This document shows, in pieces, positions 40,595 through 63,762 of a stretch of DNA of 64,000 nucleotides. The number at the start of each line of letters is the position of its first letter. Positions within the stretch are counted from its first letter, which is position 1. Position numbers and translations under genes: made by a program. A model generated the notes under the pieces. The model did no database searches and was not told the origin of the DNA. It saw only the letters and a list, made by a program, of their open reading frames with translations. Source of the DNA: a virus; IMG/VR virus record IMGVR_UViG_3300023174_006137, positions 64,001 to 128,000 of that record; one strand, given 5' to 3'.

Positions 40595-41035
40595 ATGAAA
40601 TATCTTAAACCATTTAACGAAAATTTTGCAAAACAACCTAATAGAGAAAAAGTAATAATAGGTGGCTATCCAGTATGGGTAGATTTAGAAAGAAGCATTA
40701 TATTCGATAGTGAATATGCAACATATGGTAATCCAATTGATATTTTTTATTTTGATAGTGAATATCCTAAAGTTTCAACTGGTTCCAAACTTACACAAGA
40801 AGAAAAAAATGATTTAATAAATTATATTAAATCTAAAACAAAACTAGGATATAATTACCAAGTTGTAAATAGTTTAGATCCACTTGATATACCTTTAGAT
40901 TCTTCTAGAAGAGAATCTTTCACAGGATTTCCAACAAAAGAAGAGGCATATATGAAAGGGTTAAGTGCTAAAATAGAAAATAGACTATCAGACATATATG
41001 TTATAAAAACGGAACCTAAAAGATATTATATTTAA
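40595..41035 (+). CDS. Hypothetical protein (MKYLKPFNE N-terminus)
   Basis: ORF after AATATATA. Confidence 0.6.
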   Translation: MKYLKPFNENFAKQPNREKVIIGGYPVWVDLERSIIFDSEYATYGNPIDIFYFDSEYPKVSTGSKLTQEEKNDLINYIKSKTKLGYNYQVVNSLDPLDIPLDSSRRESFTGFPTKEEAYMKGLSAKIENRLSDIYVIKTEPKRYYI

Positions 41036-41370
41036 AAATCAAAATTAGCTAATAATCTTTTTATAATATATTCCTTTACATTATCTGCTAAATATATTGC
41101 TTGATCCATACCTTTAATTTCTTTCATATAATAACCAGTTCCTTTACAAGTTTCACATTCATAATCAGGATATTCGGAATCATTAGTATCACAATACCAA
41201 CACATTGATTTCTCTGTTTTTGTCTCAACATAACTACCACCACTTGAATTTGAATAATCGAAATATATATAATCAATATATTCTTTATTTTCTATCATTC
41301 TTATTTTAGTTATAATAACTAAACAGCCTGTATATAATTTATACACATTTCCAATTCTAAATTTGCTCAT
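41032..41370 (-). CDS. Hypothetical protein with Zn-finger-like CxxC...CxxCxGxG
   Basis: CWYC...CETCKGTG. Confidence 0.6.
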   Translation of the reverse strand: MSKFRIGNVYKLYTGCLVIITKIRMIENKEYIDYIYFDYSNSSGGSYVETKTEKSMCWYCDTNDSEYPDYECETCKGTGYYMKEIKGMDQAIYLADNVKEYIIKRLLANFDF

Positions 41371-41378
41371 AATTTTTT

Positions 41379-42962
41379 TTAATTTTTATAACTATCTTTT
41401 AAAGAAACTGTTTTTATAAAACTTCCATCTAAATCTTTGGTATAATAACCATTTCTTACAAATTGTGCAGCTTTACCAACTTCACAATTATCAATATTTA
41501 ATTCACTATAAATTATAGTTTCATGTATTACATCATTCTTTATTTCACAATTATTATCTAAAAATAAATCTTCATACTCCTTAACCATAATTTCTTTATT
41601 ATATAACGCAGAAACCCAGTGAATTGTTCCTTTTACTTTTCTATCTGACTTGCCAGATTTTGTATCTACATCAATAGTACATCTTATTTCAATTATATTA
41701 CCAATGCTATCTTTGATGATTTCATTTGCTTTTATAATATAAGCACCTTTTAATCTAACTTCGCCACCTAATTTTAAACGATAATATTTCTTATCGGCTT
41801 CTTCTCTAAAATCTTCATTTTCAATATAGATTTCTTTTGTAAAAATAACTTCTCTTTTACCATCATTTGGATTTTCAGGATTATTTTCAATTTCACAAAT
41901 TTCAGAACCTTCATAATTCGTTAAAACAACCTTAATAGGATTGAAAATGCACATATATCGATATGCTATTTTATTTAAATGATTCCTTAAACATTCTTCT
42001 AATAATTTATAATCAATTACAGATTCTCTTTTAGTATAACCAATGATTTCACAGAAATTTTTAATAGATTCTGGAGTATAGCCTCTTCTTTTTAACCCAG
42101 ATAATGTTAATAATCTTGGATCGTTTAATGTATACCCTTCTTCAATCAAAGACTTAAACTTCCTTTTACTCATTAAATGATTAACAACATTCAATCTAGC
42201 AAATTCGGTTTCTTCTGGTAAATTATTTTCTAAATCTAAATTATTTAATATCCAATTATAAAGAGGACGATGTAATTCAAATTCCAAAGTGCATAAAGAA
42301 TCTGTTATTCCTTCTATGTAATCTGAAATAGGATGAGCAAAATCATACATAGGATAAATACACCATTTATTACCAGTATTATGATGTTCTTCTTTAATTA
42401 TTCTATATATGATAGGATCTCTCATGCACATTATCGGACTTGACATATCAATTTTCAATCTCAAAGTGCAATGACTTTCTCCATAGATACCATTTTTCAT
42501 ATTTTCAAATCTATATAAATTATCCTCAATACTTCTATTTCTATAGATAGAATCTATACCTGGTTTCACTAAATCTCCTTTATTATTGGCTATTTCTTCG
42601 GAAGTTGAATCATCAACATAAGCTAACCCTTTATTTATTAATTTAACAGTACAATTATAAATATAATCAAAATAATTGGATGTATATTCTATTTTGGAAG
42701 GGTTAAAGCCTAACCATTTAATATCTGCTAAAATTGCATCAATATATTCGGATTTTTCTGCACAAGGATTTGTGTCATCAAATCTTAAATTACATGAGCC
42801 ATTATATTTTTCCGCTAAACCAAAATTTAAACACATCGATTTTGCATGACCGAGATGTAAAATAAAATTGGGTTCCGGTGGAAAACGCAATACTGGATTG
42901 ATTCCATTATTTACTTTTTCTAATATTTTTTCTTCTATAAAATTCATAATTTTTAATACCAT
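41379..42962 (-). CDS. glnS: Glutaminyl-tRNA synthetase
   Basis: RFPPEPN, HLGH, RFDDTNP, YPMYDFAH, CTLEF, MSKRK, KVKGTIHWVS. Confidence 0.95.
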   Translation of the reverse strand: MVLKIMNFIEEKILEKVNNGINPVLRFPPEPNFILHLGHAKSMCLNFGLAEKYNGSCNLRFDDTNPCAEKSEYIDAILADIKWLGFNPSKIEYTSNYFDYIYNCTVKLINKGLAYVDDSTSEEIANNKGDLVKPGIDSIYRNRSIEDNLYRFENMKNGIYGESHCTLRLKIDMSSPIMCMRDPIIYRIIKEEHHNTGNKWCIYPMYDFAHPISDYIEGITDSLCTLEFELHRPLYNWILNNLDLENNLPEETEFARLNVVNHLMSKRKFKSLIEEGYTLNDPRLLTLSGLKRRGYTPESIKNFCEIIGYTKRESVIDYKLLEECLRNHLNKIAYRYMCIFNPIKVVLTNYEGSEICEIENNPENPNDGKREVIFTKEIYIENEDFREEADKKYYRLKLGGEVRLKGAYIIKANEIIKDSIGNIIEIRCTIDVDTKSGKSDRKVKGTIHWVSALYNKEIMVKEYEDLFLDNNCEIKNDVIHETIIYSELNIDNCEVGKAAQFVRNGYYTKDLDGSFIKTVSLKDSYKN

Positions 42963-42966
42963 TTTG

Positions 42967-43037
42967 TAATCCCATACTGGAACGATCAGTATTCTTCAGG
43001 GTCAAAACCTGACGCATCACCTTAATGCTTTGGGATT
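42967..43037 (-). tRNA. tRNA-Gln(UUG)
   Basis: Cloverleaf; anticodon arm TCAGG TTTTGAC CCTGA. Confidence 0.8.
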
Positions 43038-43044
43038 ATATTTG

Positions 43045-43116
43045 TAGTCGGACTAGGAGTCAAACCCAGTCTACGAAGGCCAAATCTTCGTGTGCGCATC
43101 GGTACACTATCCAACT
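43045..43116 (-). tRNA. tRNA-Gln(UUG)
   Basis: Anticodon arm CGAAG ATTTGGC CTTCG. Confidence 0.75.
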
Positions 43117-43122
43117 ATGTAG

Positions 43123-43205
43123 TTGCCAAGACAGGACTCGAACCTGTATTTACTTCTCGTCCTCCGCTTTCAAAGAGCGGGATGCTACCATTACACCACT
43201 TGGCA
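43123..43205 (-). tRNA. tRNA-Gln(UUG), long variable region
   Basis: CCGCT CTTTGAA AGCGG; U1-A72. Confidence 0.85.
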
Positions 43206-43207
43206 AT

Positions 43208-43243
43208 AAAAAAACCGTTCAATCAAATCAGATTGAACGGTTT
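43208..43243 (-). terminator. Attenuator terminator of the Gln module
   Basis: AAACCGTTCAATC tgattt GATTGAACGGTTT followed by a U tract. Confidence 0.9.
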
Positions 43244-43264
43244 AGACAATAAAATCTCACACCA

Positions 43265-43312
43265 TCAATCTGGTTTAAATAATTGTTGTTGTTGAGAAGT
43301 TAAAGTTTTCAT
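43265..43312 (-). promoter_or_regulatory. Leader peptide MKTLTSQQQQLFKPD (Gln attenuator)
   Basis: Four tandem CAA codons; 3' CAGATTGA is complementary to terminator TCAATCTG. Confidence 0.8.
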
Positions 43313-44191
43313 TTTTTTATAATAATTTATAAATTTTTCTATTTCAGTTTTTATATATTCTTTTCCTGCTTCGTTATTTATTGATTGCCATTTTATTCTA
43401 TAAATATTAAAATGTTTTAATAAATTTTTATCTCTTTCATTATCATGTTCAACTCTATATTCATGTTGTTTACCATCTATTTCTAAATCAATATTTCCTT
43501 CTTTAATATAGAAATCTAAAAAATAATTTCCATTTCCTTCTATATTATATTCTTTTTTTATTATAGTTTTATTAGGCTCATATTTTATGCCATTGTTTTC
43601 TAATACCATTTTGAAAAACTTTTCTGGATAACTTTCAATATTTCTTGATTGCCAACCTTTATGTGTTCCATTTTTTATTCTTTCTTTAACTGAATCTCTT
43701 AATTTATTTTTATATTCCTCGCTTGTAAATTGACACTTTTTACTACAATATTTTCGATTAATATTTTTTCCAGTATATGTTTTTTTACAATTGGGACATT
43801 CTTTTATGTATTCCTCTTCATTATATTTTTTATTCCACGGAATATTATTTTTTAATGTATTAGATATTTTTTTACATCTTTCCTCATATTTTTCTTTATC
43901 AAAATTAGTATTATTTTTACCATGTTGATAATAAGAATTTGAACATGACGATGAACATGTTTTCTTACCATTTTCTGTTGTTTCAAATTCGTTAAAACAA
44001 ATAGGACAAATAAGTTTAATTTTTTGGTATTTTCTATTTTTGTTTTTATTTTCAAAAATAGATTTATTAAATCCATTTTGTTCTAAAACTTCTGCTGCCT
44101 TTTTATTGCTTCGTCCATTAGAATAACCATATAATTTTATGGCTAAGTCATTAATGGAAAAACTTTCATTTATAATTTTAATGATATCCAT
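43265..44191 (-). CDS. Homing-endonuclease-like protein (Zn fingers + DUF559/Vsr-like nuclease), in frame with the Gln leader
   Basis: CxxC/CSxxC repeats, SYPE, FLDFY...LEIDGKQH...RD; start set at ATG 44191 after AATATATA. Confidence 0.75.
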   Translation of the reverse strand: MDIIKIINESFSINDLAIKLYGYSNGRSNKKAAEVLEQNGFNKSIFENKNKNRKYQKIKLICPICFNEFETTENGKKTCSSSCSNSYYQHGKNNTNFDKEKYEERCKKISNTLKNNIPWNKKYNEEEYIKECPNCKKTYTGKNINRKYCSKKCQFTSEEYKNKLRDSVKERIKNGTHKGWQSRNIESYPEKFFKMVLENNGIKYEPNKTIIKKEYNIEGNGNYFLDFYIKEGNIDLEIDGKQHEYRVEHDNERDKNLLKHFNIYRIKWQSINNEAGKEYIKTEIEKFINYYKKMKTLTSQQQQLFKPD

Positions 44192-44232: not shown

Positions 44233-44311
44233 TGGTCGAGAAGGTGAGATTCGAACTCACGAGTTGTCTTGGTCCCAAACCAAGCCGGGTACCTGACTCC
44301 CGAACTTCTCG
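44233..44311 (-). tRNA. tRNA-Pro(UGG)
   Basis: CTTGG TTTGGGA CCAAG; encoded CCA. Confidence 0.85.
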
Positions 44312-44317
44312 TTTTTG

Positions 44318-44391
44318 CGGTCTGTACCGGGTACGATCCGGCAACCTTCCCCGTGACAGGGGGATATTGTATCCATTTCTACTAACAGACC
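44318..44391 (-). tRNA. tRNA-Asp(GUC)
   Basis: TCCCC CTGTCAC GGGGA; G73. Confidence 0.85.
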
Positions 44392-44399
44392 ATTTTTTG

Positions 44400-44477
44400 C
44401 AGTGACGACGGGACTCGAACCCGCAAACCTCCCGATAGACAGTCGGGCATTCTGACCTAAAATTGAACTACGCCACT
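44400..44477 (-). tRNA. tRNA-Asp(GUC)
   Basis: CCCGA CTGTCTA TCGGG; G73. Confidence 0.85.
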
Positions 44478-44483
44478 ATTTCG

Positions 44484-44568
44484 TCTGGGTGACAGGGCTC
44501 GAACCTGCATAAGATGTTAATCATTCTCCTGTCCAAGAGGAGTCGGCTTCCATTGCCTTCACACCCAG
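44484..44568 (-). tRNA. tRNA-Pro(UGG), long variable region
   Basis: CTCCT CTTGGAC AGGAG; C1-G72, A73. Confidence 0.8.
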
Positions 44569-44573
44569 AAATT

Positions 44574-44607
44574 AAAAAAACCTATTAGCTTTTGACTAAC
44601 AGGTTTT
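44574..44607 (-). terminator. Attenuator terminator of the Pro/Asp module
   Basis: AAAACCTGTTAG tcaaaag CTAATAGGTTTTTTT. Confidence 0.85.
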
Positions 44608-44631: not shown

Positions 44632-44721
44632 TTATATAAACACATAGTTAGTCCACTCCTTATCAGGATCCTGATCCGGTTGTTGTTGTGGAACTACTTG
44701 TATGTTTATATTGTTTTTCAT
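44632..44721 (-). promoter_or_regulatory. Leader peptide MKNNINIQVVPQQQPDQDPDKEWTNYVFI
   Basis: 10-codon P/Q/D-only tract; GACTAAC is complementary to terminator GTTAGTC; promoter at 44783-44813. Confidence 0.8.
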
Positions 44722-44782: not shown

Positions 44783-44813
44783 CAAAGATACATAAAAGTT
44801 TGAAATCAGCAAA
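44783..44813 (-). promoter_or_regulatory. Bacteroidota-type promoter of the Pro/Asp/Gln tRNA operon
   Basis: TTTG-N19-TATCTTTG. Confidence 0.8.
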
Positions 44814-62870: not shown

Positions 62871-62976
62871 GAGTCAAAGCAGGAATCGAACCTGCGATTG
62901 CTTTACCATACAGAGTGCCATTAGCCGTTAATCTCAACCTTTGGAGGTGCTTATGTTGCCACTACACTATTTGACT
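62871..62976 (-). tRNA. Atypical tRNA-like element (Trp CCA-like loop, expanded centre)
   Basis: Perfect acceptor AGTCAAA/TTTGACT, D arm and T arm; CTCCAAA loop but unpaired anticodon stem. Confidence 0.45.
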
Positions 62977-63688: not shown

Positions 63689-63762
63689 AGTCGATAACCG
63701 GGTTCGAACCGGCTCTATTCCAGCATGGCAAGCTGGTGCACCACCAATTATGCGTTATCGAC
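63689..63762 (-). tRNA. tRNA-Gly(GCC)
   Basis: CCAGC TTGCCAT GCTGG; U73. Confidence 0.85.

Follow-up and report, generated by a model that had tools for sequence, protein, structure and literature searches.

The viral contig IMGVR_UViG_3300023174_006137 (159 kb, 26% G+C) carries, within the 64-kb stretch analysed here and referred to as the window, a short reading frame with four consecutive glutamine (Gln) codons and an intrinsic terminator, followed by three tRNA-Gln(UUG) genes and glnS, the gene for glutamine--tRNA ligase (GlnRS). We consider it highly probable that this Gln unit is a ribosome-mediated leader-peptide transcription attenuator that senses the decoding of Gln codons and gates the three tRNA-Gln(UUG) genes, GlnRS and a small downstream open reading frame (ORF). 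The assignment rests on the anatomy of the unit, its conservation, its codon match and its alternative pairings. A first-pass annotation of the sequence had proposed a self-contained module in which a Gln leader attenuator co-regulates the tRNA-Gln genes and GlnRS. Comparative and structural evidence supports such an attenuator, and from it we infer the regulation itself. The Gln-sensing layout of the module stands, with three refinements: the unit appears to be the second tier of a nested Pro/Asp/Gln operon, its leader is fused to an endonuclease ORF, and it belongs to a set of eight codon-matched units on the contig.

Layout of the Gln unit

All elements of the Pro/Asp/Gln/glnS block lie on the minus strand. 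The Gln leader occupies 43265..43312, with its ATG at 43312, 15 codons and a TGA at 43267-43265; the four CAA sensor codons fall at 43294-43283, and both the frame and its CAA run are where the first-pass annotation had placed them. Four CAA triplets in succession occur once in the window, against 0.04 expected occurrences, and 4 of 14 leader codons are cognate, compared with a background of 2.9% in the codon usage of the contig (P = 6e-4). Segments 3 and 4 of the attenuator form an intrinsic terminator hairpin at 43212..43243 (-), located by a terminator scan and folding, with a 13-bp stem followed by a T-run and a hairpin energy of -20.1 kcal/mol. Its U-tract stops 3 nt before the first tRNA-Gln. 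The 109-nt leader region as a whole folds with z = -5.3 relative to shuffled sequences. The unit concerns Gln only and is thus monovalent, is nested behind another attenuator and contains the synthetase gene itself, while the leader-terminator module is small (about 110 nt) and portable. A cmscan search of positions 40000-64000 (E <= 0.1) returned no match to an Rfam leader family or a T-box, its matches being tRNAs and two sub-threshold hits to unrelated families.

Conservation in related phages

A GlnRS alignment, used to scan viral contigs, yielded 37 loci. Eleven related loci, in which GlnRS is 56-69% identical, contain the same series of elements: an ORF in which 4-7 Gln codons follow one another in frame, a U-tailed terminator, two to four tRNA-Gln genes and glnS. 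The leader upstream of glnS, which the first-pass annotation had suggested looking for in related phages, is therefore present there. In 9 of the 11 loci the Gln-run ORF stands alone, with 16-26 codons; these include the GenBank sequences LR756502 and LR745206, which come from huge uncultured phages (about 640 kb) to which the window region is related. The two exceptions are the closest relative, locus L004, whose Gln-run ORF is fused to an endonuclease ORF, and locus L037, where upstream in-frame ATGs could extend the ORF. In LR756502 and LR745206 (L001 and L002) the order of Pro/Asp tRNAs, tRNA-Gln cluster and glnS is conserved, no endonuclease ORF is found, and a stand-alone ORF of 16-17 codons, seven of them Gln codons, lies with a U-tailed hairpin just upstream of the first tRNA-Gln. 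Since these genomes are public, the arrangement can be verified by others. Swaps between CAA and CAG among the relatives retain the Gln meaning of the run. A comparison of CAG in leaders with tRNA-Gln(CUG) in clusters (5/5 against 4/7) was suggestive, but the numbers are too small and it was not used.

A pattern scan of viral contigs returned 42 matches, of which four were true leaders (three already known and one on a new contig), the pattern being too permissive inside coding regions. In locus L006 (350-2526), a Gln-rich leader and terminator directly gate a 149-aa ORF followed by glnS, with no tRNA between them. This 149-aa ORF matches HAD_SAK_2 (PF18143, 'Swiss Army Knife RNA repair'), which hints that stalling in this locus may also switch on an RNA-repair-type enzyme. 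At glnS loci of lower identity (46-52%), no tRNA-Gln cluster adjoins glnS, and the 900 nt upstream contain no short ORF rich in Gln. The same pipeline gave no convincing leader-terminator units in a 40-kb Lak-A1 region or an 8.6-kb LR756501 region, so the design is not universal among megaphages.

Antiterminator pairing and its co-variation

The antiterminator strand (segment 2) spans 43260..43273 (-) and comprises the last three codons of the leader, including the stop, plus 5 nt. In the best duplex between the leader and the 5' arm of the terminator, as computed with RNAduplex, leader nucleotides 40-53 pair with the arm and the first loop base over 12 bp with one bulge, at -15.6 kcal/mol. 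Shuffled leaders reach -6.0 +/- 2.0 kcal/mol, and none of 300 attains the value of the window (z = -4.8). The pairing of 11 of 12 positions between the leader end and the terminator arm and loop, described in the first-pass annotation, is confirmed by direct reading and shares its core with the 12-bp duplex, the two differing in how they extend beyond it. In the fold modelled with the last CAA occupied by a ribosome and before segment 4 is transcribed, the RNA adopts the antiterminator (-17.7 kcal/mol). The gap between the last Gln codon and the antiterminator strand is about 10 nt, and the stop codon falls within that strand, or no more than 14 nt past it, in all 12 loci. A protector helix is predicted when no ribosome is present. 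In the window it would join the Gln tract to the region of the stop codon; in most relatives it takes the form of a local 7-bp hairpin between segments 1 and 2 that would sequester the GAUUGA strand, and in L004 it is weak.

Covarying pairs were counted by script on end-anchored segments, MAFFT having been unable to align the variable spacers in register. A 7-bp core, AGAUUGA:UCAAUCU, is retained in 9 of the 10 loci of the GAUUGA type. Loci L012 and L013 have unrelated terminators together with unrelated leader segments that match their own arm (-15.2 and -11.0 kcal/mol), whereas foreign leaders on these two arms reach only -3.6 to -10.2 kcal/mol. This co-change at the level of the whole module is stronger covariation evidence than that from individual base pairs.

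Leader-tRNA units elsewhere on the contig

On the contig, a short ORF stands upstream of eight tRNA clusters; in seven cases there is a U-tailed hairpin as well. The eight leaders are enriched in the codons of their own cluster, the true assignment being the best of 40,320 permutations. For the seven units with a terminator (the Gln unit and six others), each leader pairs best with its own arm, with a mean of -12.3 kcal/mol against -8.25 kcal/mol, a result reached by 1 in 5,040 permutations. The match extends to isoacceptors: the leader of the Leu(UAG/GAG/CAA) cluster contains CTA, CTT and TTG and no TTA, which is the commonest Leu codon of the contig.

At locus L041, outside the window, an initiator-like tRNA-Met has a host-type promoter and no leader, and a Lys leader has 4 Lys in 11 codons and a hairpin that lacks a U-tract (contig positions 139515 and 137672).

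A probable nested Pro/Asp/Gln operon

Promoters were sought with a regular expression of the Bacteroidota type (TTTG, N17-22, TAnnTTTG), the host being presumed to belong to the Bacteroidota. The motif has 33 minus-strand matches on the contig, compared with 6.4 in shuffled sequences, and lies upstream of five leader units including the Pro/Asp unit. The only full match upstream of the Pro/Asp/Gln/glnS block is at 44783..44813 (-), with a spacer of 19 nt (TTTG, N19, TAnnTTTG). A dominant promoter of its own for glnS, which the first-pass annotation had named as a finding that would refute its proposal, did not emerge: the same scan gave no full host-type motif between 44783 and 41379, the end of glnS, and the terminator scan found no terminator between the tRNA-Gln genes and glnS. 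Because no host-type promoter lies between that of the Pro/Asp unit (44813-44783) and glnS, the Gln unit appears to be the second tier of a nested Pro/Asp/Gln operon. The Gln leader of locus L005 has a promoter motif of its own.

The first tier consists of a 29-codon leader ORF rich in Pro, Asp and Gln codons (44632..44721, -), an intrinsic terminator at 44577..44607 (-) found by the terminator scan, and genes for tRNA-Pro, tRNA-Asp, tRNA-Asp and tRNA-Pro at 44233..44568 (-), identified by ARAGORN together with an Rfam tRNA match at 44477-44400. The leader segment GGACUAACU pairs with the 5' arm of the first-tier terminator. Besides Pro and Asp codons, this leader has five Gln codons, as do its homologues, and homologous leaders rich in Pro, Asp and Gln occur in L001, L002, L004, L008, L010 and L037. 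This fits a nested design in which a shortage of Gln would have to open both gates.

The tRNA at 44477-44400 (-) was read by eye as Asp with a GUC anticodon; it is detected by the Rfam model only and was missed by ARAGORN. Among the relatives, the Pro/Asp or Arg clusters include tRNAs, called by ARAGORN, whose anticodon loops are irregular (L002 4213-4286, L010 2244-2315 and L013 1407-1491); one of them has an 'anticodon' of 4 nt. A motif containing ATATATA lies 11-17 nt upstream of the ATG in 4 of 8 leaders, compared with about 0.03 expected; the leader ATGs concerned are at 44721, 50559 and 52195 and, for the Ser/Arg leader, at contig position 136746.

The tRNA-Gln genes, glnS and the downstream ORF

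ARAGORN detects 25 tRNA genes in the window. Three of these are the tRNA-Gln(UUG) genes, which the first-pass annotation had correctly located directly downstream of the leader and terminator: the first at 43122..43205 (-), 84 nt long with an enlarged variable region, the second at 43044..43116 (-), with a non-canonical T-loop and D-loop, and the third at 42966..43037 (-), with a non-canonical T-loop. The Rfam tRNA model does not report the second and third at E <= 0.1, and unlike these two, nearly all tRNA-Gln genes of the relatives retain the T-loop motif GGTTCGA.

The enlarged variable region (tRNA length 82-87 nt), unusual for tRNA-Gln, is found in one tRNA-Gln(UUG) per cluster and is conserved across phages, in most relatives as a short stem with a GNRA-like loop. 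Besides the copy in the window (43205-43122, -), it is seen at L001 4741-4825, L002 4810-4891, L004 2744-2830, L008 2651-2732, L010 2823-2905, L013 1826-1909 and L037 2793-2874. Further over-long tRNAs in the window are those for Pro (86 nt), Met (87 nt), Val (88 nt) and Cys (90 nt), and an Rfam tRNA match of 106 nt lies at 62871-62976.

The glnS gene (41379..42962, -) encodes a protein of 527 aa that matches PF00749, PF03950 and PF20974 in Pfam and scores 584.9 bits against the TIGR00440 equivalog model (cutoff 425.8). The protein contains the catalytic domain of class I c and the two anticodon-binding domains. The gene is intact. The proposal that glnS begins a few nucleotides after the last tRNA holds at 4 nt for the ATG at 42962 and becomes 19 nt for the ATG at 42947, which is the start conserved in the alignment of relatives. 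A 112-aa ORF without a family match begins 8 nt after glnS (41032..41370, -) and is probably the last gene of the Gln unit.

The fused endonuclease ORF

The view of the leader as a separate small ORF is only partly borne out. Its ATG, CAA run and TGA are present, but the frame is not delimited by an upstream stop and continues that of a 308-aa ORF (43265..44191, -), which resembles a DUF559/zinc-ribbon endonuclease, lacks a stop of its own and has the Gln leader as its last 15 codons. This ORF matches Pfam DUF559, a Vsr-like endonuclease family, at 27.9 bits (cutoff 20.6) and has zinc-ribbon-like CxxC pairs. Its counterpart in L004, likewise fused to the leader, shares 79% identity with it, and its other relatives are in LR756501 and in Lak phages of Prevotella. 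The homologue in L003 (LR756501) ends 6 aa past the last aligned block, at the position of the leader ATG in the window. In five relatives no ORF of endonuclease size is found at the same site, and the DUF559 ORF is thus sporadic, being present in the window and L004, at an otherwise conserved site. The ORF is probably a mobile insertion, its nuclease nature being suggested by the domain match. Since relatives have the leader alone and the endonuclease family ends at the leader methionine, the inserted gene appears to have lost, or never to have had, its own stop and to read through the leader.

Other endonuclease-like ORFs lie among the tRNA clusters. One, at 49967-49689 (-), matches HNH and zinc-ribbon weakly; another, a NUMOD-like repeat ORF, ends just upstream of the tRNA-Gly at 63762 (-). 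Mobile nucleases thus seem to land preferentially in tRNA arrays.

Proposed mechanism

Transcription probably starts at 44813-44783, passes the first attenuator with its Pro, Asp and Gln codons, the Pro/Asp tRNAs and the endonuclease ORF, and reaches the Gln leader, where ribosomes could arrive at the sensor codons either from the leader's own ATG or from the in-frame endonuclease ORF. If Gln-tRNA were plentiful, a ribosome at the TGA would mask the antiterminator strand, a geometry that assumes the usual size of the ribosome footprint; the 13-bp terminator would then form and polymerase would stop 3 nt before the first tRNA. If Gln-tRNA were scarce, the ribosome would stall on the four CAA codons with its 3' edge ending about where the antiterminator strand begins. 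That strand would pair with the 5' arm once the arm is transcribed, no terminator would form, and the tRNAs and glnS would be transcribed and then cut out of the read-through transcript by tRNA processing. With no ribosome on the leader, the Gln-codon tract would pair with the antiterminator strand as a protector helix, and termination would be favoured. The output of such a circuit, the capacity to decode CAA and CAG, would be exactly what its sensor measures.

Evidence against the attenuator and alternative explanations

Several points weigh against this attenuator. The terminator state (-21.2 kcal/mol) is more stable than the antiterminator state, and the switch must therefore be kinetic, as in trp. 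Evidence from nucleotide covariation among the GAUUGA-type loci is thin: a single flanking pair, with its 3' partner located in the terminator loop in most loci, occurs as three Watson-Crick types (five loci with C-G, one with U-A and one with G-C), beside three mismatches and several changes that retain pairing through wobble. The leader has no stop-delimited start in the window, where it is the tail of the 308-aa ORF, and the insertion has replaced the native 5' UTR. Of the three tRNA-Gln genes, two seem degenerate; they could be impaired, or else specialised. Inside the endonuclease ORF, 46 nt before the ATG of the Gln leader, there is also an ATATATA motif (43359-43352, -), and this motif could be a phage-specific promoter or initiation signal. 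Finally, we infer from the sequence the conditional termination and read-through, as well as the promoter used and the cause of Gln-tRNA depletion during infection, and transcription-translation coupling is assumed for the presumed Bacteroidota host.

The module might be real and translated and yet serve as a processing or stability element, or as a gauge of translation that is independent of the amino acid. Thermodynamics favours the terminator in every state modelled, and the Lys unit of the contig has a hairpin without a U-tract, both of which agree with such a role. However, canonical U-tracts are present in 7 of the 8 units and in all Gln loci, leader codons match their own tRNA set down to the isoacceptor, most clearly in the Leu leaders, and the placement of the stop codon fits a trp-type mechanism. 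We therefore regard a role other than Gln-dependent termination as unlikely.

It is hardly credible, in our view, that the hairpin simply ends transcription of the endonuclease gene and the Pro/Asp tRNA unit as a constitutive terminator, with the Gln codons a chance low-complexity protein tail and a separate, unrecognised promoter serving the tRNA-Gln genes and glnS. Such an explanation could draw on the 15 codons being in frame with the 308-aa ORF, which is open back to 44191, and on a promoter for a giant-phage RNA polymerase, for which the nearby ATATATA motif would be a candidate. It was nevertheless rejected, since nine relatives without the endonuclease carry this Gln-run frame as an ORF on its own, and the leader ATG coincides with the end of the endonuclease family. 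With only 3 nt between the U-tract and the first tRNA, there is also no room for a promoter before that gene, and the complementarity between leader and terminator is specific and co-changes across loci.

A further alternative is that the attenuator works in the relatives but that the copy in the window is a decaying relic, which lost its 5' UTR to the insertion, and the canonical T-loops of two of its three tRNA-Gln genes. The fusion of the leader to the endonuclease ORF and the aberrant T-loops of tRNA-Gln 2 and 3, absent from the Rfam tRNA matches, would be expected of such a relic. On the other hand, the antiterminator duplex of the window is the strongest among the 12 loci, the ATG, the four CAA codons, the stop and the terminator are all retained, and glnS is intact. 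Moreover, L004 retains the same fusion at 79% protein identity, from which it follows that the fusion survived divergence. Decay of the window copy thus seems very unlikely, and a functioning Gln attenuator remains the preferred explanation.

Comparison with known attenuation systems

Leader-peptide attenuation is a textbook mechanism of amino-acid biosynthesis operons and of a few synthetase operons. The Gln unit resembles Escherichia coli pheM-pheST in having a short leader ORF with cognate codons, an intrinsic terminator with an antiterminator, and a cognate synthetase under their control; locus L006, with no tRNAs between leader and synthetase, has the pheM-pheST type of layout. The unit differs from pheM-pheST in its amino acid and enzyme (Gln and GlnRS), in its location in a phage genome, in the tRNA genes that lie between terminator and synthetase as its first products, and in showing no sequence similarity, a comparison that we take from textbook knowledge, with no alignment to pheM. 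With trpL, hisL, pheL and leuL it shares the four-segment logic, with regulatory codons, or the tract that follows them directly, in segment 1 and a stop in or next to segment 2, as well as the mutually exclusive 2:3 and 3:4 helices and the U-tract. Unlike in those operons, the products here are tRNAs and a synthetase rather than biosynthetic enzymes, and the loop therefore feeds back on decoding capacity and not on amino-acid supply. As in the T-box riboswitches of Firmicutes, the charging state of a specific tRNA would be sensed and terminator read-through would be controlled upstream of the cognate aminoacyl-tRNA synthetase, but a T-box binds uncharged tRNA directly and needs no translation, whereas here a translated ORF is the sensor.

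The four-segment mechanism has been described for pheL attenuation (PMC3082878), and attenuation of amino-acid operons and of those encoding aminoacyl-tRNA synthetases is the subject of a reference that PMC4833913 cites. Searches of full-text literature, in a collection that does not include most subscription journals, returned no account of tRNA genes or phage tRNA operons being controlled by leader-peptide attenuation. The tRNA-Phe genes of E. coli, considered as a possible precedent, were discarded, as pheV and pheU of strain MG1655 lie directly behind promoters and have no Phe-rich ORF or upstream terminator. What appears to be new here, no published case having been found in that literature, is the application of trp-operon logic to tRNA genes and their cognate synthetase in a virus.

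Implications for phage tRNAs and synthetases

Current proposals for the role of phage tRNAs include codon bias, host shut-off and escape from tRNA-targeting defence. We tentatively suggest, as a possibility to which we give well under even weight, that the nested attenuators act as a phage sensor of tRNA depletion or damage, in which stalling would switch on a self-contained replacement kit; the whole would then form an inducible circuit for counter-defence and for homeostasis of decoding. A shortage of Gln-tRNA might arise from host anticodon nucleases, from shut-off of the host or from the phage's own CAA-heavy codon demand, and the kit would consist of tRNA-Gln variants, including the form with a long variable arm, and a GlnRS that may prefer them. 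Among the genes gated in L006 is one with a phosphatase domain of the RNA-repair type. If true, this would amount to more than codon-usage supplementation. If the attenuation model is correct, phage tRNAs would be made on demand, amino acid by amino acid, and would not be constitutive helpers for codon usage, which bears on why large phages carry tRNAs and synthetases.

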